This document shows, one piece after another, positions 17,848-59,500 of a stretch of DNA of 64,000 bases. Source of the stretch: Antedon mediterranea (lineage: Eukaryota; Animalia; Echinodermata); assembly GCF_964355755.1 (NCBI RefSeq), contig NC_092680.1, positions 14,579,045 through 14,643,044 on the forward strand, written 5' to 3'. The notes under the pieces were generated by a model, which saw nothing but the letters and a program-made list of their open reading frames with translations, searched no databases and was not told where the DNA came from. Numbering within the stretch: the first letter of the stretch is position 1; every line of letters starts with the position of its first letter. The translations under genes were made by a program, and so were the position numbers.

Positions 17848-17959
17848 CTCTAGATTCGATTGCTTACTTCTTGTTTTAGAAAGTTTGTATTGTTATTTAA
17901 ATGCTTTATAGTTATGTTATTTAGTATGTAGTTATTGTGATGTGTTACATCACAGGGGG

Positions 17960-18816
17960 TGTAAGGTCCTATATGTATATTTATATAGAGGGCGCATTTC
18001 ATTTCAACATTGTTTTTCGTTCATGTGCAAGTTTTTTAGATGATCCCTGTTTTTGGGAATAAGACATGTGCGCGCCTAAGGTTATTGTAGGAGGAGACAT
18101 AAAATGGTCGCAAGGATGAGACCATCTGTCATAGGCGTCTGATAATATCCTATTATAAAATTGTTACGCGGAGAAAGACCATAGGTTTTGGTGAGCATCC
18201 GGTTTATTATTAACTTTAGATTGATATTATTGAGTTATTGTTTGATTTATAGTAGTTGGAAAGGCCCTAAGCCTTCTCCTACTCGTTGCCTATGATGATA
18301 TGAACGGCTAGGTTAGGCCAGATAGCCTACATCATTGTTGCCACGAGGCTGGTCAAGACGTTCATTAATTTCAATGTGTTAATGTTGATATAACAATTGT
18401 AGGCCATATCTGTCCTGTATAGTAAGGAAGGCATTTATATTATGTAATCAGCATCTCAAGTGTAATTTACAGAGAATTATTTAAGTGTTTATATATACAG
18501 TATTGTGATTTATTACACATATACGTTGTTCTGTGTAAGCCGATAGAGGGCTGTACATTGAGAGTTTTGACGTTACTAAGACGACAGGGATCGTCTTTAA
18601 ATTGTTGTTATTTGCATGATTCGTTATAACATGGTACTGCTGTATGTTAACATAGGCATTTATATTTGTCTGTTTCTTACTAGAAACGCCACAAGCTACA
18701 TGCATCACAGGTTTGACAGCTTAAAGGAGGAAATAAAAATAAGGAATAAGCAGTATATTGTGTGTAGTCTTGTTGTTGTCTACCTGAATCTAACTCCGCG
18801 ACCAGAGGTCGTTACA
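17960..18816 (+). repeat. 5' LTR of element B with TATA box, internal GT-AG intron and poly(A) signal
   Basis: TATAAAA 18154-18160; donor TG|GTGAG at 18191; acceptor TCTGTTTCTTACTAG ending 18683; AATAAA 18732-18737. Confidence 0.9.
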
Positions 18817-19239
18817 TTTCAAAACCTTGGCATTTTAAAACCTGTGTCTACGAGTCAATCTAGACAAACAAATCGGAGGTGTATTGTTGTGCAACAGGAG
18901 GCTTACGTACGTTGGATATCCAAAGATCAAGTAAGATTTGTGCAATTAATGGAGGTTCTTGATGCGTGAATAGGCTCGCTTTGGAGGAACCAAGAGGAAT
19001 TTGCATACTTTGCTGTGAAGATACTGTACCATCAAGGGAACCAAGATATCAAGGAAAAAACCGTACCTAAATATTGTTATCAAGGACTTTATCATTGATT
19101 ATATATATGCATTGTAATTTAATTACTTTCCACAAGGATTTTATTGCATTTAGGAATTTAGTGTTAATATTGTACACATCTAAATATTTCAATTACTGTT
19201 GTGCTACTCATTTAATTGATATTGTATTTGTTCGTAACA

Positions 19240-22200
19240 ATGCCTCTCTCCAAAGGTTCTTCTGTATGCTCTAGCTCTGCTGCATCCATTAGGTTGTCAG
19301 CCGCACAAACACGAGCTGACCTGGCAGTAGCTAAGGCAAAAAGGGATGTTGAATTAAAGAAACAAGAATTGGCTGCAGATATTCAAAGATTAGAACTTGA
19401 ATCTGAAGTAACTATGAACGAGGTAAAATTACAGGTTTATGAACAGGAAATAAAGAAAATGGAGGAGGAAGAGGAGAATTATAGGCAATCGAGAGACTTG
19501 GATTTTCCTGAAGGAAATAGTCAAGAAAGAGTAGCAGATTATATTCAATCTAGCATCACTCATAGTTCTATGCCACCATTACAAGATGACAATGAAGAAG
19601 ATTATGCTGTAAGGAAAGAACAGCTACCTAGTCAGCGTGGTGCAACTGTGCAACCCAAGACAAAGGCGGCTATTAATTTAAAGGATCCGATTCATGATGC
19701 ATTCATGCAGTTTATAAAAACCACCAGTTTACCAAAGAGGGAGTTGACTCCATTTAGTGGGCAGCCAACAGATTATAATAGGTTTATTCGAGCATTCGAG
19801 CATGAAGTGGAGAAAAAGGTGCCTGATAATCAAGACAGACTTTACTACCTGGAGCAGTTTACTGCAGGAGAGGTGAACCAGCTTGTTAAGAGTTTTATGC
19901 ATATGGAACCAGAAAAAGGCTATAAGGAAGCTAAACAAGCCATCGTGAAAAGATACGGTAATAAGTTTAAATTGGCGGAATCGTATCTTCAAAGAGTTAA
20001 CGGTTTCCCAGAGATAAAGGCAGAAGACGGAGGTAGAATCTCAACGTTTTCATTACTTCTTTTAGAGTGTCAAAACGTAATGTTAGATTTGGGCTATATG
20101 GATGAACTTAATGCTACCACTAACCTTCAAATAATTGTCAAGAAGCTTCCATACAAGATGCGTGAAAAATGGCGCACCAAAACTGATGCTATCCAGCAGA
20201 ACCGTCGAGTTGTATTTCGAGATTTAGTGGAATTTGTGTCTACACAGGCAAGGATACTGGACAACCCAACATTTGGTAGGATAAAGGATGATAAGGTAAT
20301 GGGAAAGACCCCATCAAAATATACGAAGAAGGATACTATGAGCGGTGCATTCGCAAGCGTAGAAGAAACATCTTACAAGGACTCTCCCATAAAGAATGTA
20401 TGCCCGTATTGCAAACTGTCAGGGTGTTGGTTAGGAAAATGTTCACCGTTTGCAAAACTAAACAGAGAAGATAAACTCAACTTCTTAGCAAAGGAAAGGA
20501 GATGTTATGGTTGCTTAGGAAAGGGACATGTATCCAAGAAGTGCAGTAGACGAAGTACATGTAAAAAATGCAACCAGAAACATCCCACCATTCTTCACAG
20601 AGATGATACACCGCCCAAGGAACAAATTAGTGGTGCTCCAGCAGGTCAGCTTAACGCTACACAGACAAGTAATGGTAATACTGTGCAGTCAGCAAATCAG
20701 CTCGCTGCTACGTCGAAAGAATTTGTACCAGCTAGTAGCGACCTAGCATCAGCTTGTGTTGATGACGATGCAGATTGTGCACTGGCCGTCGTACCAGTTT
20801 TGGTAAAGCTTAACGGGCGCCAAGTAATAACTTATGCATTTTTAGACCCAGGCAGTAACATCTCTTTTATTTCAGATAAGTTAATGCAACAATTAGGAGT
20901 AGGCGGAACCAAAGGTTCAATTTCATTCAAAACGATGGGCGTGCCACATACGGCCCCCGCGAAGTTAGTGAAGAATATAAGAATACAGGCTTTGACTGGG
21001 AAAGAAAATGATGTGACGATTCCCTTGGCCTTCTCGAAAGAAAACTTACCTATTGAGCGGAATTTAATACCCACGCAAGAAGAAATAGATAAGTGGCCCC
21101 ATCTGAGTGGAGTGAAAATCAACTATATTGAGGCCGACGTTGGGCTGCTGATTAGTATGAAGGTTCCAGGAGCTTACACACCCCTCGAGATCAAGACTGG
21201 TCCTGAAGACGCACCTCATGCAACAAGAACCAAGCTTGGGTGGATTGTGTGGGGATTGATAAAGGGAAAGAGAGCCAGTCAACATGCTTCTTACAGAACT
21301 CAACTTGTGGCCTATAATAACTCTACACATGAGGAAACAAGATTAGAGAAGCTATATCAAGGATCCTTAGAAATGGACTTTCCAGAAAAGGGACTTAATC
21401 AGGAACAGCAACTTTCCATTGAAGATAAGGAATTTATATCTAAAGTTGAGAAAGGCAGCACTATGGTTGATGGTCATTATTGTGTCGCCTTGCCGTTTAA
21501 GGAAGGTCAAGTAAAACTACCAAACAACTGGTATTTGGCAGAGAAAAGGTTGAAATCTTTGCAGAAACGACTAACGAACGATGACAAATACAAGCAAGAA
21601 TATTGCTCATACATGGAAGGTTTGGTTGAGAAAGGATTTGCTGAGAAGGTGCCAGTAGATGAAGTGACAAAGAATAGACAGTGTTGGTACGTGCCGCATC
21701 ATGGTGTTTATCACCCTCAGAAGCAAAAACTGCGAGTAGTTTTCGACTGTGCGGCCAAAGCAGAAGGTGTGTCGTTGAACGACTGTCTTCTCCCTGGACC
21801 AAATCTTACTAGCAGTTTGCTAGGAGTGCTGTTGCGATTTCGGCAAGGTAAAATAGCGCTCGTAGCTGATATTGAGGCCATGTTCTCGCAAGTGATAGTT
21901 CCGGTGAAGGATAGGGATTTCTTAAGATATATTTGGCATCCGGATAGTACTCCAGAAGTCTATAGAATGAAGGTACACACCTTTGGTGCAACATGTAGCC
22001 CATCTTGTGCCAACTTTGCGTTAAAGAAAACTGCTGATGATAACAAGGACGATTTCCCTGAGGACGTAATTGAAACTGTAAAAAATAATTTTTATGTGGA
22101 TGATCTCCTTAAGAGCCTCGACAATCCAGAGATGGCTATTGAGATGGTTGAACATTTGAGAAGACTTTGTCGACGAGGTGGGTTCAATCTGACAAAGTGG

Positions 22201-23691
22201 TCAAGTAGCAACAAAGGCGTTATACAATCTGTGCCTGAGGATCAACGTTCAACAGAATTAAAGGGACTTAATTTGAACCAGGAACTGATACCTACTGAGC
22301 GAACGCTAGGTATAAATTGTGACTTGGAGAAGGACGTGTTTCAACTGAGTACACCCAGTGTGACAAGGCAACAAAACATATGGACTAGAAGACACTTATT
22401 GTCAGTAATGAGTTCAGTATTTGACCCGATGGGGTTGATGTCACCAGTGGTACTGCCAGCAAAGGACATTTTTCAGCGATCACTTAGTTTGAAGGACAGC
22501 GGTTGGGATGACCCATTCTCCAAGGAATTACAAGAGGAGTGCACAAAGTGGTGGAGTGAGCTACAACTTCTCAAGGAGGTTGTGATTCCTAGATGGTTAG
22601 GAACATATGCACATTGCAAATGTCAACTACACGTATTTGCTGACGCATCCAGTAAGGGATATGGTGTGGTACTTTACGTAAGATTGGATGACGGATCTAA
22701 TAGATGTACTTTGCTATACAGTCGATCCAGAGTTTCGCCGAAGAAAAAACAAACTATTCCGAGGTTAGAATTGACCGCTGCGACAGTTGGTGTAAAAAGT
22801 GCAGCAATTATAAGACAAGAAATGGACGTCGAATTTGACAAGGTCTTTTTCTGGACAGACAGTATGATAGTTTTGAATTACATTCATAATAGAAATACGA
22901 GATTCAGTGTGTTCGTGGCCAACAGGCTACGCGTGATTCACGAGGGCTCGGAACTTAATCAATGGCGTCATGTTAGGAGTAAAACCAATCCAGCTGACCT
23001 TGCATCTCGAGGAATAAATCTAAAAAATGAGGATGAGGTTGCTATGTGGCTACGAGGGCCGGCGTTCCTCACAAGAGATTCGTCGGAATGGCCACAGCTA
23101 TTTCAAGGTAGTCAATTGAAAATTGATGATCCTGACGTAAAGGAAGTCTTTACAGTAGTAGAACAAAACCGTTGGATGAATGATCTGATTAAGCGGTACT
23201 CTTCCTATCACAAACTAAAGAAGGCAGTCGTATGGTGGACTAAATTTATAGGTTACTTGTCCCACAAATCCGTAACACCAATGATAACAGCAACTGAAAT
23301 GGAACAGGCCGAGATAGACTTGATCAGATATGTACAGGAAGAGTTTTTCAACGAAGAGATTGATGCGTTGAAGGGCCAAAAGGATGTGAAGAAAACTAGT
23401 TGCCTTGCAAAATTAAACCCGACCTTGGATAAATGTGTGCTGAAGGTTGGAGGGAGATTGAAGAATTCGGAGTTGGATGAAAATGCCAAGCATCCAATTG
23501 TATTGCCGAAGCATCGTCTTTCAGAGGTGATAATTAATGAGGTTCACAAGCGCACAGGTCATTGTGGCAGGAATCAGTTAATCGACGAGGTGCGAAAGAA
23601 ATTTTGGATTGTCACGCTTCCATCGGTTGCGAAAGCATGTGTTACAAGATGTATCAATTGCTTAGAAGATAATCCAATTATATTGCTTTAA
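19240..23691 (+). CDS. Element B Gag-PR-RT-RNase H polyprotein, uninterrupted, ending just after the integrase HHCC zinc finger
   Basis: First ATG 19240 (MPLSKGSS). Cys/His knuckles (CYGCLGKGHVSKKC, CKKCNQKH), FLDPGS protease, RVVFDCAA, DIEAMF, NFYVDD, FADAS, TIPRLEL, NPAD, H...H...C..C, then LEDNPIILL*. Confidence 0.93.
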   Translation: MPLSKGSSVCSSSAASIRLSAAQTRADLAVAKAKRDVELKKQELAADIQRLELESEVTMNEVKLQVYEQEIKKMEEEEENYRQSRDLDFPEGNSQERVADYIQSSITHSSMPPLQDDNEEDYAVRKEQLPSQRGATVQPKTKAAINLKDPIHDAFMQFIKTTSLPKRELTPFSGQPTDYNRFIRAFEHEVEKKVPDNQDRLYYLEQFTAGEVNQLVKSFMHMEPEKGYKEAKQAIVKRYGNKFKLAESYLQRVNGFPEIKAEDGGRISTFSLLLLECQNVMLDLGYMDELNATTNLQIIVKKLPYKMREKWRTKTDAIQQNRRVVFRDLVEFVSTQARILDNPTFGRIKDDKVMGKTPSKYTKKDTMSGAFASVEETSYKDSPIKNVCPYCKLSGCWLGKCSPFAKLNREDKLNFLAKERRCYGCLGKGHVSKKCSRRSTCKKCNQKHPTILHRDDTPPKEQISGAPAGQLNATQTSNGNTVQSANQLAATSKEFVPASSDLASACVDDDADCALAVVPVLVKLNGRQVITYAFLDPGSNISFISDKLMQQLGVGGTKGSISFKTMGVPHTAPAKLVKNIRIQALTGKENDVTIPLAFSKENLPIERNLIPTQEEIDKWPHLSGVKINYIEADVGLLISMKVPGAYTPLEIKTGPEDAPHATRTKLGWIVWGLIKGKRASQHASYRTQLVAYNNSTHEETRLEKLYQGSLEMDFPEKGLNQEQQLSIEDKEFISKVEKGSTMVDGHYCVALPFKEGQVKLPNNWYLAEKRLKSLQKRLTNDDKYKQEYCSYMEGLVEKGFAEKVPVDEVTKNRQCWYVPHHGVYHPQKQKLRVVFDCAAKAEGVSLNDCLLPGPNLTSSLLGVLLRFRQGKIALVADIEAMFSQVIVPVKDRDFLRYIWHPDSTPEVYRMKVHTFGATCSPSCANFALKKTADDNKDDFPEDVIETVKNNFYVDDLLKSLDNPEMAIEMVEHLRRLCRRGGFNLTKWSSSNKGVIQSVPEDQRSTELKGLNLNQELIPTERTLGINCDLEKDVFQLSTPSVTRQQNIWTRRHLLSVMSSVFDPMGLMSPVVLPAKDIFQRSLSLKDSGWDDPFSKELQEECTKWWSELQLLKEVVIPRWLGTYAHCKCQLHVFADASSKGYGVVLYVRLDDGSNRCTLLYSRSRVSPKKKQTIPRLELTAATVGVKSAAIIRQEMDVEFDKVFFWTDSMIVLNYIHNRNTRFSVFVANRLRVIHEGSELNQWRHVRSKTNPADLASRGINLKNEDEVAMWLRGPAFLTRDSSEWPQLFQGSQLKIDDPDVKEVFTVVEQNRWMNDLIKRYSSYHKLKKAVVWWTKFIGYLSHKSVTPMITATEMEQAEIDLIRYVQEEFFNEEIDALKGQKDVKKTSCLAKLNPTLDKCVLKVGGRLKNSELDENAKHPIVLPKHRLSEVIINEVHKRTGHCGRNQLIDEVRKKFWIVTLPSVAKACVTRCINCLEDNPIILL

Positions 23692-23841
23692 TTATTGTTT
23701 GTTTAAGATATTGATTGTATGTTACTAAACTTTATCAGGTTATTATAGAATTTATAATTGATCAAGATCGAAAATTGTATGTTTGTTTAATGTTTAAGGT
23801 GTTTGCTAATGCTCACTTTGAGTTTGCATTAGGAGGGCCGG

Positions 23842-24698
23842 TGTAAGGTCCTATATGTATATTTATATAGAGGGCGCATTTCATTTCAACATTGTTTTTC
23901 GTTCATGTGCAAGTTTTTTAGATGATCCCTGTTTTTGGGAATAAGACATGTGCGCGCCTAAGGTTATTGTAGGAGGAGACATAAAATGGTCGCAAGGATG
24001 AGACCATCTGTCATAGGCGTCTGATAATATCCTATTATAAAATTGTTACGCGGAGAAAGACCATAGGTTTTGGTGAGCATCCGGTTTATTATTAACTTTA
24101 GATTGATATTATTGAGTTATTGTTTGATTTATAGTAGTTGGAAAGGCCCTAAGCCTTCTCCTACTCGTTGCCTATGATGATATGAACGGCTAGGTTAGGC
24201 CAGATAGCCTACATCATTGTTGCCACGAGGCTGGTCAAGACGTTCATTAATTTCAATGTGTTAATGTTGATATAACAATTGTAGGCCATATCTGTCCTGT
24301 ATAGTAAGGAAGGCATTTATATTATGTAATCAGCATCTCAAGTGTAATTTACAGAGAATTATTTAAGTGTTTATATATACAGTATTGTGATTTATTACAC
24401 ATATACGTTGTTCTGTGTAAGCCGATAGAGGGCTGTACATTGAGAGTTTTGACGTTACTAAGACGACAGGGATCGTCTTTAAATTGTTGTTATTTGCATG
24501 ATTCGTTATAACATGGTACTGCTGTATGTTAACATAGGCATTTATATTTGTCTGTTTCTTACTAGAAACGCCACAAGCTACATGCATCACAGGTTTGACA
24601 GCTTAAAGGAGGAAATAAAAATAAGGAATAAGCAGTATATTGTGTGTAGTCTTGTTGTTGTCTACCTGAATCTAACTCCGCGACCAGAGGTCGTTACA
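23842..24698 (+). repeat. 3' LTR of element B
   Basis: Copy of 17960-18816 at offset 5882. The ORF track gives the same 75-aa translation in both copies. Confidence 0.95.
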
Positions 24699-24705
24699 GG
24701 GGGAG

Positions 24706-24967
24706 TGTGCTGTTCGCGATTGATAATTTGTTATGCGTACCGCCCTCTATAGTTTGTCTCCACTGTTCGATAAGTGTTAATGGCGGCTCGGCAGTCACAT
24801 ATATTGTTTTCATCTCAAAACGATGTTTTATGCAAGATATTGAAAGAGGTGTCGATTCACACCCTTTTTTACCACACACACACACACACACACACACAAA
24901 CTCAAACGAATAAAGACTTGGTTATACTGATCGGTGTGATAAATGTTTATTTATTAGTTCCGTGACA
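24706..24967 (+). repeat. 3' LTR of element A (262 bp)
   Basis: Copy of 11795-12048, followed by TSD ACAGG. Confidence 0.95.
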
Positions 24968-29582: not shown

Positions 29583-29846
29583 AAAAAAAAAAAGATGGTA
29601 AATGTGCTCTCCCTGCCTTAGCACTATAAGGCCCTGCCACAGCTTGTTGGGGTCGTTTCCACCACATTACCAGACGCATTGATGTTGTCGCCTTATGATG
29701 TGTGGTGGAAAGGGGGACGTATGATCTGTGAACCCCAAACACAGTGACTCGCATAGCCTTAACTCTATTCCACCGACCAGCATGGAAATCGAACCCACGA
29801 CATACGTGTTGTTAACACGACGCTCAGACGACTGAGCTAACTGATC
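29583..29846 (-). ncRNA. tRNA(Ile)-like head (73 nt, anticodon loop TT-AAC-AA) fused to a ~190-nt body ending in T11; SINE or Pol III RNA, copy 2
   Basis: 29846-29774 folds as a cloverleaf: acceptor GATCAGT/GCTGGTC, D stem GCTC/GAGC, anticodon stem CGTG/CACG, T loop GGTTCGATT. It resembles eukaryotic tRNA-Ile(AAT), but the D loop lacks GG. Confidence 0.55.
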
Positions 29847-29936
29847 ATTTTGGTTTAGGTTAATAGGGTATTTATGACGTAATGATAAATTACGTAATAC
29901 ACGTATAAATAGACTATTATCAGCTTTTCAGTCATG

Positions 29937-31110: not shown

Positions 31111-31913
31111 TAGTCGCGTGGAAGCGACTCTATAGTTCACTATGTCGGTCGGTCGGTCGGTCGGTCTGTCTGTCTGTCTGTCTGTCTGTCGGTCGGTCGG
31201 TCGGTCTGTCTGTCTGTCTGTCTGTCGGTCTGGTATCTCTATGCGTTTTATCGCTTTATGACCTTATCTTGATATCAGTTTAATCTAGCTAAGTCAATTT
31301 TTCACAGAATATTCCTTATGGCCAGGAATCGATGTGGTTATGTTTTCACGGTGCGCAATAACAAATTACGTGGTCTACGCACGATTTAACGAAATCACGT
31401 TTGTAATCATATCTTCACAACCATGAATCACAATTAAATAAAATTTGGTACTCATAAATTGCAGGGCATAAATCATCATATGGCAATACAATTACGTGCG
31501 TAGCGCATGTAAGGCATGCGTACGCGCGCTTAAAATTTTCAAAATTTATTTTCGATGAAATAAGAGTACGTTTCAGGCAATTTTAAGCGTTTACAAAATT
31601 GCCATGAGTGCGCAGATTTTTTGCGCGTTAAATGTTTTTGCGCACTCTTTTTGCCCGATTTCTGTTTTCTTGACTTACTTTTCAACTCGAAATTACGTTA
31701 TACGAGCACGTCAAAAGTGACAGGCTACGCACGTGTAAATTAAAAAAATATAAATGTTTTTAAACATTTCAACATTTTTAAACATGTTCAGTAATTTCGG
31801 TCAGTATAGTTCACTATGTCGGTCGGTCGGTCTGTCTGTCTGTCTGTCGGTCTGTCTGTCGGTCCGGTATCACTATGCATTGTAGCACGCGACTTAATGG
31901 CTGTTGGCCTTGT
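31111..31913 (+). mobile_element. Helentron-associated non-autonomous element (HINE/DINE-1-like), copy 1
   Basis: Sub-TIR AGTCGCGTG ... CACGCGACT, (GTCG/GTCT)n microsatellites and a GGCCTTGT end. Comparison with the uninterrupted P-like copy shows insertion between T and T with no TSD. Confidence 0.8.
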
Positions 31914-32897: not shown

Positions 32898-33566
32898 CTT
32901 TACCCCCTTTTATTATACTACCCTTACAAAAAATGTTATAGAACTCTACTATAGAAGTTTAGAATTCTATGTTAATCTATAGAAACAGATACTTTCTATA
33001 GGATTGAATTTACAGATTTTAACCCTAGAGTTTTATAGAAATTGCTTTATAGAAAATATTGAAATTGCAGAAGAATTGCTATCATTTATTCATAAATCAT
33101 ATATTGTTTGCCAACAACAATACTGTATACTGTAAAATTTGCATTATGACTTGACTGGGGTTTACCAAGATTGGTAAGAGTTTTCCAAATCAAATAGAAT
33201 ATCATTAAAAAAACATCACTTAACGACAAAAGAACAATAATAAAACTATTATATAATTCATCTGGTTCCGAATATAATTAACTGGAAAACTATTACTTTA
33301 TGTTAACCAAAAAAATACAAACACAAACTAAAGGTATTTATACCAATTTTGTATGTATTTTTTTGGTTCAACATGAAAGTAATAACTTTCCAGTTAATAA
33401 TTAAAACTGTTATGTCAAAAAAGTCGAGCGGCGTTTTTTGTAAGAAATATTTCTTGTTTAAACCTAAACCTAAACTTATGTAAAATTATGATGTTTAATA
33501 ACATAAATTATCATCAATTTTAAAAATGTAGTGATTACCGACAAAACTGTAAGTAGGTAGTCGATT

Positions 33567-33813
33567 AACTAAGATATCTCTATTTAAAATTAAGATATCT
33601 CTGTTTAAAACAAAGATATCTCTGTTTAAAACTAAGATATCTCTATTTAAAAACTAAGATATCTCTATTTAAAATTAAGATATCTCTATTTAAAATTAAG
33701 ATATCTCTATTTAAAACAAAGATATCTCTGTTTAAAACTAAGATATCTCTATTTAAAAACTAAGATATCTATATTTAAAACTAGGATATCTCTATTTAAA
33801 ACTAATTGATATC
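33567..33813. repeat. 22-bp minisatellite (~11 copies)
   Basis: Unit AAAACTAAGATATCTCTATTTA. Confidence 0.9.
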
Positions 33814-33874
33814 TTGTAAATGATTTAATGACAGTTTGGCCCGACATTATGTACGCGCACAAAAACATTGAATC

Positions 33875-35723: not shown

Positions 35724-35967
35724 GCTGTGGGCCTTGTTTTTAACAAAATGGACCTCACACAGGCCATTTCTTTTAAGTAAAATGTTAAACTTGGCAGCTT
35801 CTTCCTCCTCCATCTTTCTTTTTTGTTGTACTCGATATAGAGAGAGCCAGGGCTGATGATGAGGGGGGATGGTCAGAGAAGTAATCGCGCGCTTGCTGAT
35901 CGCCGCACGTCACATGACATCATGGTGTGATCGTCGGAAGAGCGCGCAAGTTCAGACATGCTATCGT

Positions 35968-36505
35968 GGAATTCCGTCTTGCCGAGATACTTTACCTTGG
36001 AATTCCGTCTTTCCGAGATAAACTATCTGAGAATTCCGTCTTTCCGAGATAAACTATCTGAGAATTCCGTCTTTCCGAAATAAACTATCTGAGAATTCCG
36101 TCTTTCCGAAATAAACTATCTGAGAATTCCGTCTTTCCGAGATAAACTATCTCAGAATTCCGTCTTTCCGAGATAAACTATCTAAGAATTCCGTCTTTCC
36201 GAGATAAACTATCTAAGAATTCCATCTTTCCGAGATAAACTATCTAAGAATTCCATCTTTCCGAGATAAACTATCTGAGAATTCCGTCTTTCCGAGATAA
36301 ACTATCTGAGAATTCCGTCTTTCCGAGATAAACTATCTCAGAATTCCGTCTTTCCGAGATAAACTATCTCAGAATTCCGTCTTTCCGAGATAAACTATCT
36401 AAGAATTCTATCTTTCCAAGATAAACTATCTGAGAATTCCGTCTTTCCGAGATAAACTATCTGAGAATTCCGTCTTTCTGAGTTAATTTATCTTGGAATT
36501 CCATC
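35968..36505. repeat. 31-bp minisatellite (~17 copies)
   Basis: Unit GAATTCCGTCTTTCCGAGATAAACTATCT(G/A/C)A with no spacers. Confidence 0.92.
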
Positions 36506-36599
36506 ATATCGATTGCTTTATTCCATGTTTCCAAGATAATTATCTCAGTAACTCGGAATCTCGGAAGGTCAATTTAAGCTTCCGTACATAGCTAACTAC

Positions 36600-38907
36600 A
36601 GAATGCAAATTGGACTCTATTAGAAAGGAAAACGAAAGAAAAAAGAATATGCAAGAAAAAATAGCATAAGCGTTATGAAATTGGTTAGCGTTTCAGTACG
36701 AATAGCAGCCATAATTTATGTACAATTACTACTTGCTGGAGATCATCCAGGGCCTCGTCCAACACGACAGGAAACAACCAAACAAACTGACCCCGACGAA
36801 GAAAAGATAACCGGTTCTTCATTTTCTCACATTTAATACAAAATATGAACACAAAAATGAACTATATTGCTGAAGATATAAAACTTATGAAAGCTCAGAT
36901 GGATACAATAACTAGTAGCATGAACCATTTAAAGAAAGAATTGAAGAAGAAAATAATATCTGAAAAAAGAAAACGAAAAACAAAAAATTAAAATAGACCA
37001 AATTGAAGGACAAAGCCGAAGGAAGAATCTAATATTTTATGGAATAAATGAAAGAGACGGTGAAAGTTGGGCTCAAGCCGACGAAAAAGTCAAAGAATAC
37101 ATCACGGAAACTCCAAAAATGGATGGAAATAGTATCCAGTTTGATACTTAATGCTAAAATTAGACAAAGGCCTATAATAGCGAAATTTAAAAAGAAGATA
37201 TTTTAAGCAGAAAGATACGTCGACATGCAACCGTGGGAGAAAATGTTTTTCAAGCAGAAGCAAGCGTCAATGAAGACTCCACAGCAAGAGTTAGAGCAAT
37301 TAGAAAGAAACTGAAACCAATGATGGCCGAAGCTATTAAGAAAGGGAAACAAATTAAATTAAGATATGATAAGCTTATTATTTATAATGAATCATTTACC
37401 TTTGATTTAGATAATGATAAATTAGTTTCATTAAATAAAAATAAATAGAAAATAAATAATGCCAATATGCAAAATCAAAAAAAGACAAAAACAAAAAATG
37501 TAATAGCCTTAAAATCGGCACCAATAATAAACGTAATTGTAAATAAAAATTACATTTAATGTAATAAAAGAATTTGTAAAAAAAATATATAAGTACTAAA
37601 AATAATTACAAAAAACTATTAAAACAGAAACAAATAGACTACTACAAAACAAAAAGGAAAAACATAAGACGACTCCTCAAAGATAACGATAATAAAAGAT
37701 TCCGAGAAGAGAAGAAAAAAAGCAATCTATCAAATGAAATTTCATTAATGGTATGGCATCGACACTTTAGTAATGTAAACAGTTCCAATAATTGTAAGCG
37801 TAGTGGACAACTTGCCCTATGTCAATCAAATATTGAACACAGAAATTAAATTAGATGAAGTCATAAGTGCATTTAAACACCAACAAGGGTAAAGCCCCGG
37901 GTATTGATGGTATCACGAGCGGAATATTATTAAATGTCCCTAATTTTGTATATGAAAAAAAAATTTAATATTTGTCAGTAGGACTTTCCCTTAATGTTGT
38001 GCCACCACTGTAATTATACCAATACATAAAAAGGGAAAAGTTCTGAACCTCAAAACTATAGAGAGGGATATCTCTGATACCAACCATAGCTAAGGCTTTC
38101 CTTTATATCATCAATAATAAACTCATAGACTGGACAGATAAATGTAACATTTTGAATCAGGAGCAATCAGGGTCTAGGAAAGGACATCGAACCCTCGACA
38201 ATATATATTTTGAACACAATTGTATCCAAAAATCTTATTAAGAAGAGGGGCAGAACTTGTGTTACTTTTGTCGACTTAAAATGTGCCTTTGATTCTTCAA
38301 TAAACCACAATTACCTTACTTACGAATTAAAGAAACTAGGTCTGCAAGATGAAATTTTAAATGTAATTAATTCACTCTATTCAAAACTAAAGTCTTTTGT
38401 TAAAATTGATTCCCTACAAAATGGAATTGGTATACAACAGGAGTCACCATTATCATCTCTATACTATTTAATATCTTTCTACAAGACTTAATTCTGCAAA
38501 ACAATCTGATAAAATACAGATTCAAGATTACAAATTTTAGATCTTGAAAACGAAAAGGGATGATGGACAGGAATTGAAAGGGAAAAACGAATCTGTAAAG
38601 TTTACAAATGTAATGAGGTTGAAAATGAATATCACCTAGTTTTAGTATGTCCATACTACAACGAAATTAGACACTCCTTCTTAAAACCTTATTATTTTAA
38701 TCAACCAACAAATAAAAAGTTTATTTTACTAATGAAAAACAAAAAAAAAGTAATAAAAAACCTGGTAAGATTTGCCTTTTTGGCATATAAAAAGAGAACT
38801 AATTATTTTGCTGTTACTACTTCTTAAATTTTACAATATGTATTATTTTCTATTACTGTACTTGGGCCAGTGGCCTACATACTATTGAATAAATGGATGA
38901 ATGAATA
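36600..38907 (+). mobile_element. Degenerate, internally deleted RTEX-like LINE (ORF1, ORF2 fragments and 3' tail)
   Basis: ORF1: IEGQSRRKNLIFYGINE..ESW, RPIIAKF, KLRYDKLII. ORF2: KAPGIDGI, NYRGISL (frameshifted), EQSGSRKG..TLDNI, FVDLKCAFDS, C-terminal C..C...ENEYHLVLVCPYY. GGCCAGTGGCC hairpin, AATAAA and (TGAA)n tail. Confidence 0.8.
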
Positions 38908-56500: not shown

Positions 56501-59500
56501 CAATTGCACACTAGTTCGGTTAAGTTGCTTGAAAAGTCTTGCACAACTAAATTCACTTGAGTTGAGATGCTTTCAGTTTTTCAGGTACATAAGCCCAACA
56601 TTTTGGCATTCCTGGGCCACATTAAACTGAATAACATGTTTTTCATTTGATTTAAATCTTTCAGATTTGAGGAAGAAACCATGCTTTTATGTATTTTGTA
56701 AAGAACCATGCAGCAGAGTCACGCAGGGAAAGCTTAGAGTTTGTTGTCAGAAATGTAAACAAGGAGCATTTACAGTTTTACAGGTGCTGTAATTCTTTTA
56801 TTCAATAAACTTGCTTTTTTTGTTTTTAAATTTTATCGTATATCTTGTGGTTCTTGGGACTATACCTGAGGAAAACCTGGTTCATGGAAAATATAATAAT
56901 GCATTTCTTGTAAAAACTCATCGCTGGATAGAGAGACTGGAACTACACCCAGGGATACTGTATGCCTGTTTGTGAAATCAGATATAAAGTGGGATTAGAC
57001 CCAAAGTGGGATTATACCTGAGGATATATGGTATTTAGGCAAATTGCTAAAGATAACTATATAAACAAATTCACATTTATGTTTTTTTATATTATATTGT
57101 TTGAAACCACAATAAACTAAAACGGCATTCCAAGAGTGAATAAATAAAAAAAAACATAAAGTACATAAGATACTTTGTGTACAAAGTATCAATGTCTTAA
57201 AAGTATTTGGGAGTGATTCTTAGGAAATTGTGGCCATTTGGCTTTAATGACCTGTAGGAGTAATATTAAAAGCTACTAAAAAGAAGGCCTGTTCTGTGCC
57301 TGATTTGTTTATATATAAATATAGATAAATTCATATCACCTGGATAGAGTGCTCAATACATGGTGGTAGAGCCCAATAATATAAATAAAACAAAACGAGA
57401 TGAACAAAGAAAGATGACTTCATATTTATTCACTACAAGCTCGTTTCGTATGGCCAGCAAAGCTGGTCACATTGTTCAGATAAATTACAAAACATGGTCT
57501 TGTATTAATTCAATTCAACTTTTTTAAACTGCAGAGGGCCAGATCAACACATGGTTGTTCATCCCTGTGGCCTTGCACACATACAATGGTTGTTCATCCC
57601 TTGGGTCTTGCACACATACAATGGTTGTTCATCCCAGGGGCCTTGCACACATACAATGGTTGTTCATCCCAGGGGCCTTGCACACATACAATAGTTGTTC
57701 ATCCCAGGGGCCTTGCACACATACAATGGTTGTTCATCCCTGGGGCCTTGCACACATACAATGGTTGTTCATCCCAGGGGCCTTGCACACATACAATGGT
57801 TGTTCATCCCAGGGGCCTTGCACACATACAATGGTTGTTCATCCCTGGGGCCTTGCACACATACAATGGTTGTTCATCCCAGGGGCCTTGCACACATACA
57901 ATGGTTGTTCATCCCAGGGGCCTTGCACACATACAATGGTTGTTCATCCCAGGGGCCTTGCACACATACAATGTTTGTTCATCCCAGGGGCCTTGCACAC
58001 ACACAATGGTTGTTCATCCCTGGGGCCTTGCACACATACAATGGTTGTTCATCCCAGGGGCCTTGCACACATACAATAGTTGTTCATCCCAGGGGCCTTG
58101 CACACATACAATGGTTGTTCATCCCAGGGGCCTTGCACACATACAATGGTTGTTCATCCCAGGGGCCTTGCACACATACAATGGTTGTTCATCCCAGGGG
58201 CCTTGCACACATACAATGGTTGTTCATCCCAGGGGCCTTGCACACATACAATGGTTGTTCATCCCAGGGGCCTTGCACACATACAATTTAACAATGTTTT
58301 AACAATAATGTACAAAATATAAACATATATTTTCAACTTCACTACTTGAAGACCTTTTTGTCAAAACACAATATATTGACGTATGTTCCGTTTACACTCC
58401 TAGCTGATGCAAGATATGTTGATTGTGGCCTCTCTATATTAATATATTTAAAAAAAATTATGGCGCCCTTTATTGTTTTTGTGGTGCTTTTTAAAGTTTA
58501 CCCAATATTCAAGTTTTCCAAGTTGGGTCCTCTGTCTACCTTTCACCTAATCTAGGTCTTTCTTGATTTTAGGACGTCACATGTTGGGAAGATGTTCTAA
58601 CCCCAGGAAAGATTCAAGGATGTTGTCAATTAGATGGTTGTAATGGAGATAAATCAGTGAGTTTAAAATTGCTTAACTTTGCAATATTCCCATTTTCAGT
58701 TTTTTCTACCCTATAGTTTTGTAAAACTAAGTTGCTTAATAAATTATTGAATACAAATTATTAAACAACATTACAACAACATTTTTTGATTAGTAACTTT
58801 ATATTGAACATATTCAAACTACAGAGGTGACATTAAATTTAACAAATTAACATACACCAATTAGCATCTCAAGTAGTTGTAAAGTTGTTACTGAACTTGT
58901 TTTATACAGTGTACTGTATATTATTATTACTATTTATAGGAATTCTATTTCAAGTGTGCAAACCATCAAGGCAGTGAAGGGGGTCGCGTTCCAGCTCTAC
59001 ACTTAGTGAAAACAAACACAAGAGAAATACCATGCCTTACCTGTGATCATGTGTAGTACGTATAATGGATTCAGTATCATTAGTCATATCAATGGTATAC
59101 AAGTAATAAATGTTCATTGAATTGTGAAAATATTTCAGGAGTTGAAAAATTGACTGCTCTATTTTTAACAAGGCGGGGCTAAGTTGAAAAATTTGGGAAA
59201 AAAGTGGAAACATTGCAATCAATTTTTCATTGATATAAGTATATAATTATCTGATGTGATTATACACCTACTCTGTAAAGCCCACCCCTCTGTTATAAGC
59301 CCATCCATCTGCTTAATATCCCTCTACTCTGTTAGCCCTCTTCGTCTTTTTATTGTATTTATCTTATTTATATTCTCCTGTGCTCTGAGTTTATCACCTG
59401 AATAGCGGCTATCCTTCTCTGCTTACCTCTAGCTTAACTTTCTTAAAAGCTCAGCCTTCTCTTATAAGCTCGCCGCACTATTAAAGCCTATCCCTCTGTT

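Follow-up and report, generated by a model that had tools for sequence, protein, structure and literature searches.

How does a BEL/Pao element prime reverse transcription when the complement of the bases directly following its 5′ LTR is not contiguous in that LTR, and how could an intron persist in such an element, given that reverse transcription normally erases introns? These questions are raised by element B, an LTR retrotransposon located at positions 17960-24698 of the window, the 64,000-nt stretch of Antedon mediterranea DNA analysed here (GCF_964355755.1, NC_092680.1, 14,579,045-14,643,044, forward strand). We consider it very likely that element B self-primes with the 5′ end of its own RNA, and that this primer is completed only when a 493-nt intron within the LTR is spliced out.

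Setting and classification of element B

Element B is nested inside an older BEL/Pao element, element A, in the purine tract just ahead of the 3′ LTR of the latter, and is flanked by a 5-bp duplication, GGGGG (Table 1). Its LTRs are identical across 857 bp and have TG...CA ends. Eleven runs contain element B wholly or partly, none of which is on record as RNA, and seven of these were examined (X1, X2, X3, X6, X7, X9 and X10). An empty-site contig for the insertion, with a loose end at 17959, is present in run X3.

By its proteins, namely a Pao-type RT/RNase H (Peptidase_A17) and a DUF1759 Gag, element B is a BEL/Pao element, and as such it falls outside the Ty3/gypsy RT lineage and is not a Tf1/sushi chromovirus. 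A profile search of the encoded protein recovers PF05380 (E 1.9e-45), PF03564, PF00078 and PF17921, while the structural features expected of BEL/Pao elements, an LTR within 0.2-1.2 kb, TG...CA ends, a purine tract and a target-site duplication, are likewise found. The DUF1759 Gag, RT, Peptidase_A17, integrase zinc finger, gypsy order and 5-bp duplication are all shared with Belpaoviridae. Homologs with 41-49% identity are named from molluscs, hemichordates, echinoderms, amphioxus, a nemertean and fishes, and element B probably belongs on the Sinbad/Sparrow/Surcouf (Sailor) side of Belpaoviridae, the RT tree used holding no named reference elements.

A domain search of the gag-pol frame recovers no integrase core in this copy. 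The contigs of other element B copies diverge from the window at 23656-23661, and those of run X1 include both the core-less form and a longer one. The LTRs of element B are identical despite the missing integrase core, and the element may have moved in trans.

Table 1. Coordinates of features of elements A and B in the window
Feature	Position	Strand	Remarks
Element A 5′ LTR, BEL/Pao, intronless	11795..12048	+	3′ LTR at 24706-24967; duplication ACAGG
Element A predicted Tf1-like primer, 13 nt contiguous	11949..11961	+	Complement of own PBS, 12049-12061
Left target-site duplication GGGGG	17955..17959	.	Within element A purine tract
Element B 5′ LTR	17960..18816	+	Identical to 23842-24698; contigs of other runs stop at 17960 and 18816
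Predicted TATA box, TATAAAA	18154..18160	+	Seen in sequence; putative function
Exon 1, 5′ part of predicted primer, 8 nt	18183..18190	+	Joined to exon 2 in X6 and X7; putative start site
GT-AG intron, 493 nt, within predicted R	18191..18683	+	Exact removal in X6 and X7 contigs
Predicted primer 3′ end, 3 nt of exon 2	18684..18686	+	Putative cleavage after 18686, by analogy with Tf1
Sole AATAAA of the LTR	18732..18737	+	In exon 2, downstream of acceptor
PBS 1	18817..18827	+	Directly after terminal CA
PBS 2, tandem copy	18833..18843	+	Single mismatched letter in the window; exact in X2, X3, X6 and X7; absent from some sister copies
Element B gag-pol frame	19216..23691	+	1491 aa; first ATG 19240; DUF1759, RT, RNase H/Peptidase_A17, integrase zinc finger
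Element B 3′ LTR	23842..24698	+	Carries intron copy 24073-24565
Right target-site duplication GGGGG	24699..24703	.	Seen in sequence

A predicted primer split by an intron

In the retrotransposon Tf1, the opening 11 bases of the RNA pair with the PBS (primer-binding site), and RNase H cuts between bases 11 and 12 (PMC7175516, in excerpt). An earlier, sequence-only reading of this locus proposed a comparable primer for element B, and its coordinates for the LTRs, the TATAAAA motif, the splice donor and acceptor and the 3′ intron copy all hold on re-reading of the sequence. As that reading maintained, the complement of 18817-18827 is not contiguous in the element B LTR and is created when 18191-18683 is removed. 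The longest contiguous match is 8 nt (PBS offset 3), and no other GT-AG excision in the LTR yields 11/11 PBS pairs. The donor reads GTGAG at 18191, and the acceptor TAG ends at 18683. A match of at least 11 nt through any GT-AG pair arises in 11/2000 dinucleotide shuffles of the LTR, and in 1/2000 when the donor must read GTRA and the acceptor must follow a pyrimidine tract. When a PBS complement of at least 10 nt inside the own 5′ LTR is taken as the mark of a Tf1-type self-primer, element B has 11 nt after intron removal. The segment 18191-18683 is a U2-type spliceosomal intron by its GT-AG ends, its pyrimidine tract and its exact removal in natural sequence.

Since the AATAAA lies downstream of the acceptor, the R region is predicted to span the whole intron. 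The TATA box is located 29 nt upstream of the primer segment, and this spacing is the evidence for a predicted transcript start near 18181-18183. PBS 1 and PBS 2 are 16 nt apart, each with a CA before it, and are polymorphic among sister copies, some of which carry a single PBS (16-nt gap at 18821). While the 11 pairs stand, the bulged extension to 14 bp that had also been proposed makes use of the TGG spacer between the PBS copies, which those sisters lack, and is therefore probably incidental. PBS 2, the single AATAAA, the missing integrase core and the self-complement of element A had gone unremarked.

That self-complement, 13 nt and contiguous, places element A among the Tf1-type self-primers by the same 10-nt measure; it is matched in 0/200 shuffles, with a predicted helix probability of about 1. 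Element A, which shares 35% RT/RNase H identity with element B, belongs to a distant family of BEL/Pao elements, with a short LTR and a coding region broken over several frames. Elsewhere in the window are a tRNA-Val(AAC)-like gene that may be the head of a SINE (29773-29847, minus strand; at most 5 nt complementary to either PBS), tandem arrays at 57411-58410, 35861-36604 and 33546-33820 (units of 35, 31 and 21 bp, respectively) and a dispersed repeat with a GTCT/GTCG microsatellite at 31215, 41269 and 54346.

Intron removal in natural sequences

Runs X6 and X7 are two samples of a related organism, organism B, from a single study. Each yields a contig linking 18190 to 18689 with the letters 18684-18687 in between, and since the intron-bearing contigs of organism B are without base 18688, this joint corresponds to the exact loss of 18191-18683. 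Depth, which is not copy number, is 130.9 for the joined and 98.1 for the intron-bearing contigs in X6, and 387.9 and 334.9, respectively, in X7. Both forms have letters in common at 18149 and 18710 that are absent from the window, indicating that the intron-bearing and intronless LTRs are sisters. No contig from X1, X2, X3, X9 or X10 shows this joint; contigs drop rare forms.

Unrelated flanks occur at both LTR ends in X6 and X7, and U3 is covered, suggesting that these runs are likely DNA. If so, the intronless LTR is best read as the reverse transcript of a twice-spliced RNA; were the runs RNA instead, the joint would itself be a splice junction. In both cases the predicted splice sites are in use, with the exact GT-AG ends pointing to splicing as the origin. 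Use of this intron had been set beforehand by the sequence-only reading as a condition of its proposal, and the contigs of X6 and X7 bear it out. None of the listed variants falls in the donor or the acceptor AG, or in any of the 11 letters of the primer, whereas the intron-spanning X6 contig differs by 15 substitutions and 19 gap letters in 581. In X6 and X7 a related subfamily is also seen at 18647-18737; it has exon 2 and the acceptor region in common with element B, whereas its sequence upstream of 18647 is dissimilar, so that one splice site serves two different intron bodies.

Predicted splice-junction primers in related BEL/Pao elements

Alignment of element B and 49 homologs led to 99 loci, of which 37, together with elements A and B, provided 39 readable LTR/PBS rows. 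A match was counted when it was at least 10 nt long and started 0-5 nt past the LTR end, as has been done for plant elements (PMC6317226, in excerpt); fixing the PBS at offset 0 had missed many families, which were resolved when offsets were allowed. The other 62/99 loci were omitted, most having no LTR plus PBS in the contig and some duplicating counted families (e.g. L008, L014, L017, L018, L035, L050, L077-L079 and L097). L033 was left out with an acceptor half only, while L068, in which the LTR is present and exact scans failed, has, on visual inspection, a contiguous match broken by a single mismatch. Matches in L029, L037 and L071 were set aside, as they are not at a credible LTR end.

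When compared with their own PBS, 27 of the 39 LTRs match across a GT-AG junction, ten match contiguously (including element A) and two do not match. The LTR end was chosen by complementarity scan in 18/39 rows, which is circular for these, and was fixed by a repeat boundary in the other 21, several of which were adjusted visually, by a few bases at most, to the closest end. At least 10 nt is reached in 19/21 of the repeat-fixed rows. A strict test on this set recovers 18/21 cognate pairs against 21/798 non-cognate ones, many of the latter being sister families; a looser test matches 115/1482 wrong pairs. Donor quality formed no part of the junction search, which required GT and AG only. At least three of the four further GTRAGT positions are present in 21/22 single-donor cases (10/11 in the repeat-fixed set), compared to 189/1552 GT sites in the same LTRs, and the pyrimidine tract before the acceptors found stands at 10.0 vs. 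7.6 of 14.

PBS and junction change together in these families, as the earlier reading had anticipated: besides the excess of cognate pairs, L088 and L090 differ in two exon-1 letters and have the compensating letters in the PBS. Intron lengths range from 67 to 1022 nt, and the cut position within the primer varies. The 39 rows form 34 groups at 70% RT/RNase H identity, and as read from sequence the predicted splice-junction primer is a lineage-wide design among these BEL/Pao relatives. Matching is imperfect or the LTR end atypical in a few loci. A splice-type primer with one mismatch in both LTRs is found in L084 (5855-6016), the sister of which, L042, matches 10/10, and the splice-primer families L001 (8139) and L028 have LTRs ending in TA rather than CA. 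Nineteen of the contigs, L081-L099, derive from bacterial genome assemblies and hold animal-type BEL/Pao elements, which are likely host contamination. No conserved TATA box was found upstream of the primers of the relatives, where A+T content is 0.67-0.68 at -30 to -25 vs. 0.5-0.65 nearby, and two scans of viral contigs recovered no relative.

Priming by a small RNA of the host, be it a tRNA, a tRNA fragment or another kind, with the LTR match being secondary, would accord with the 18-nt PBS complementary to tRNA-Arg or tRNA-Gly described for Belpaoviridae (PMC8742986), a site which is not found in element B. Only 2/39 LTRs have TGG within 5 nt of their end, and it is absent there in both elements A and B. 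Furthermore, 28 different primer 10-mers are observed among the 37 matches, each matching its own LTR, complementarity to the single tRNA-like gene of the window is limited to 4-5 nt at most, and Rfam gives no match across 17900-19300. Even with L069, in which TGG stands at offset 1 and a self-match is lacking, we hold such priming to be the least credible explanation, with only the slimmest chance of being correct. L069 (93-120) is the sole element read with this combination; its LTR end is not CA, and it is possibly tRNA-primed or mis-bounded.

A further alternative is that the helix between junction and PBS has a structural role, in packaging, dimerisation or the control of translation, and that no primer is cleaved from it. 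Splicing does have a separate possible use in element B, in that upstream ATGs in the leader fall from 13 to 4. The helices, however, begin 0-5 nt past the LTR end, where synthesis must start, and their modal length of 11 nt, found in 19/39 rows, is that of Tf1; no other primer is apparent. A purely structural role is accordingly judged very improbable.

Intronless relatives and the fate of the intron

Intronless LTRs with a ready primer occur among the sisters of element B, in element A and at nine other loci, and splicing is thus not obligatory for the lineage. Sister pairs differ in the presence of the intron (L076 vs. L011; L088-L090 vs. L086), and on the RT tree the intronless forms lie apart from one another, requiring six changes, at least four of which are forced by starred branches. 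This is a quick, midpoint-rooted tree with element A on a long branch, on which gain and loss are not polarised across families.

These observations also fit introns that are mere passengers, with the same priming, insertions in the primer being tolerated as they are spliced out, and neither gate nor benefit. The abundance of intronless sisters beside intron-bearing ones, the existence of intronless clades and the wide variation in intron length and cut position are what would be expected of passengers. Neutral introns should, however, be purged, and loss appears easy, yet introns with strong sites are kept in 27/37 matched LTRs, the families of which mostly share 45-70% RT/RNase H identity. 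We therefore regard passenger introns as unlikely.

Predicted folding of spliced and unspliced leaders

RNA folding predicts the penultimate primer pair with a probability above 0.5 in 22/26 spliced leaders, as opposed to 1/26 unspliced ones. Element B is among the four exceptions because its spliced leader prefers the second PBS copy, for which pairing of 0.8-1.0 is predicted, against at most 0.15 for PBS 1. With PBS 2 left out, PBS 1 of the spliced leader is predicted to pair fully, with values of 0.99, 0.92 and 0.67 for the last three pairs, whereas in the unspliced leader only the first eight pairs form (0.2, 0.0 and 0.01 for the last three). The predicted gap in duplex energy is small, at -11.6 kcal/mol for the spliced and -9.4 kcal/mol for the unspliced form. 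Splicing would thus add the last three pairs, the end to be extended, and shorten the loop. The element B insertions end at 18816 in the runs showing flanks, which argues for PBS 1 as the site used, in conflict with the predicted fold onto PBS 2.

The predicted 8-bp helix in unspliced RNA raises the alternative that exon 1 alone primes, across a TTT spacer, the intron having some other use such as U1-based suppression of 5′ polyadenylation. A use of this kind has a counterpart in foamy viruses, where a donor in R serves poly(A) control (PMC3694450, in excerpt). Many relatives have a T-rich spacer of 2-5 nt after the CA, and element B, the primer of which ends in AA, departs from the AC end seen in 30/37 matched LTR primers. 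Exon 1 contributes as few as 3 nt of the match in relatives, with 3-10 nt located in exon 2, and the exon-2 letters co-change with the PBS; in element B itself, the additional exact 3-nt match would be met by chance about once in 64. Priming by exon 1 alone is consequently considered quite improbable, and a primer joined across the junction remains the preferred reading.

Shielding of the 3′ donor by U3, in the manner of foamy viruses, was also considered. Values are lower than in the 5′ context in 16/25 cases (p 0.16) and lower than with shuffled U3 in 11/25 (p 0.71), giving no support for such shielding.

Proposed priming cycle

Transcription of element B would start near 18183, about 30 nt past the TATA box, and the spliceosome would link the 8-nt exon 1 to exon 2, a junction which is present in natural sequence. 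The first 11 nt of the spliced RNA, complementary to the PBS, are predicted to form a helix with it. RT/RNase H may then cut after nucleotide 11 (18686) and extend the 3′ end, as in Tf1. The strong-stop DNA would copy only U5 and exon 2 before jumping to the 3′ R. Were the intron copy at the 3′ end retained, both new LTRs would bear the intron; were it also spliced, an intronless, self-priming daughter would result. The new LTRs would copy the upstream part of the 3′ R, with either intron or junction, so that both LTR forms are predicted, and both are seen.

The primer would be the only part of the 5′ R that is not copied into DNA, and as such the sole place for an intron that is spliced yet heritable. 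Were an intron located more downstream in R, the strong-stop DNA would copy its spliced form and it would be lost, which would explain the location of the intron inside the primer. A strong candidate intron in the downstream part of the LTR is found in only 2/37 LTRs, although this is a weak test. The gate may thus be a consequence of keeping an intron. The sequence-only reading proposed that only spliced genomic RNA can be reverse transcribed and that the intron would persist. The gate is still predicted for intron-bearing copies, to which it is limited, since intronless self-matching LTRs exist; the unspliced RNA of element B is predicted to keep eight pairs. The intronless sisters, element A and the nine other loci make inheritance of the intron leaky.

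Comparison with known systems

Self-priming is established for Tf1 and has been proposed for Tj1, sushi-type, Tcn1 and TAR elements (PMC4600332 and PMC6317226, both in excerpt). Like element B, Tf1/Tf2/Tj1, the Tf1/sushi chromoviruses and the plant Tcn1 and TAR elements (Houba, Osr-1) have no tRNA PBS. The Tf1-type and plant self-primers are, however, Ty3/gypsy or Ty1/copia elements described with a primer that is contiguous in the LTR, whereas the elements described here are BEL/Pao, with a primer split by an intron in most families read. Element B likely works like Tf1, although it is not a member of the Tf1 lineage. In Tf2, the host determines through an alternative start site whether the transcript carries the self-primer, and with it whether reverse transcription can proceed (PMC5341516, in excerpt); the gate is a choice of start site by chromatin, while that of element B would be splicing.

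Among retroviruses, foamy viruses, which are tRNA-primed, offer a further comparison. As in element B, each LTR has a splice donor that precedes the poly(A) signal, and this donor is used at the 5′ end and kept shielded at the 3′ end (PMC3694450, in excerpt). No complete intron lies inside their primer, and no predicted structural shielding of the 3′ donor was found here.

In the open literature, as distinct from subscription papers, Repbase entries and supplements, we found no self-priming BEL/Pao element, splice-built primer or intron in an LTR primer. A term search of four BEL/Pao papers (PMC554778, PMC3118150, PMC6238403 and PMC8556966) likewise returned no discussion of the PBS in the portions covered. 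Self-priming of the Tf1 type is known in itself; what is likely new is a splice-completed self-primer in BEL/Pao elements.

Implications for BEL/Pao biology

The replication of BEL/Pao elements has been called poorly understood (PMC8742986), and their primer is assumed to be a tRNA, while the broad branch examined here likely self-primes. The junction test provides a rule for finding primers that have been overlooked by tRNA-based annotation. Transposition of intron-bearing copies would be tied to splicing, representing a new point of host control, and the natural occurrence of intron-bearing and intronless sisters in one organism offers a ready comparison. The layout further explains how an LTR element could keep an intron indefinitely, and it poses the puzzle of an RNA in which one and the same intron is removed near one end and kept near the other, with a first exon of perhaps fewer than 10 nt.

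In human cells, introns counteract the silencing of long intronless DNA by HUSH (PMC8770142, in excerpt). We think it reasonably probable that a large branch of BEL/Pao elements of aquatic animals has dropped tRNA priming and hidden a spliceosomal intron in an 11-nt primer, making the replication of intron-bearing copies spliceosome-dependent, and that this heritable intron mimics a host gene, either aiding expression and export or escaping surveillance of intronless cDNA. If this is correct, the RNA would have to lose the intron by splicing at its 5′ end while retaining the same intron at its 3′ end.
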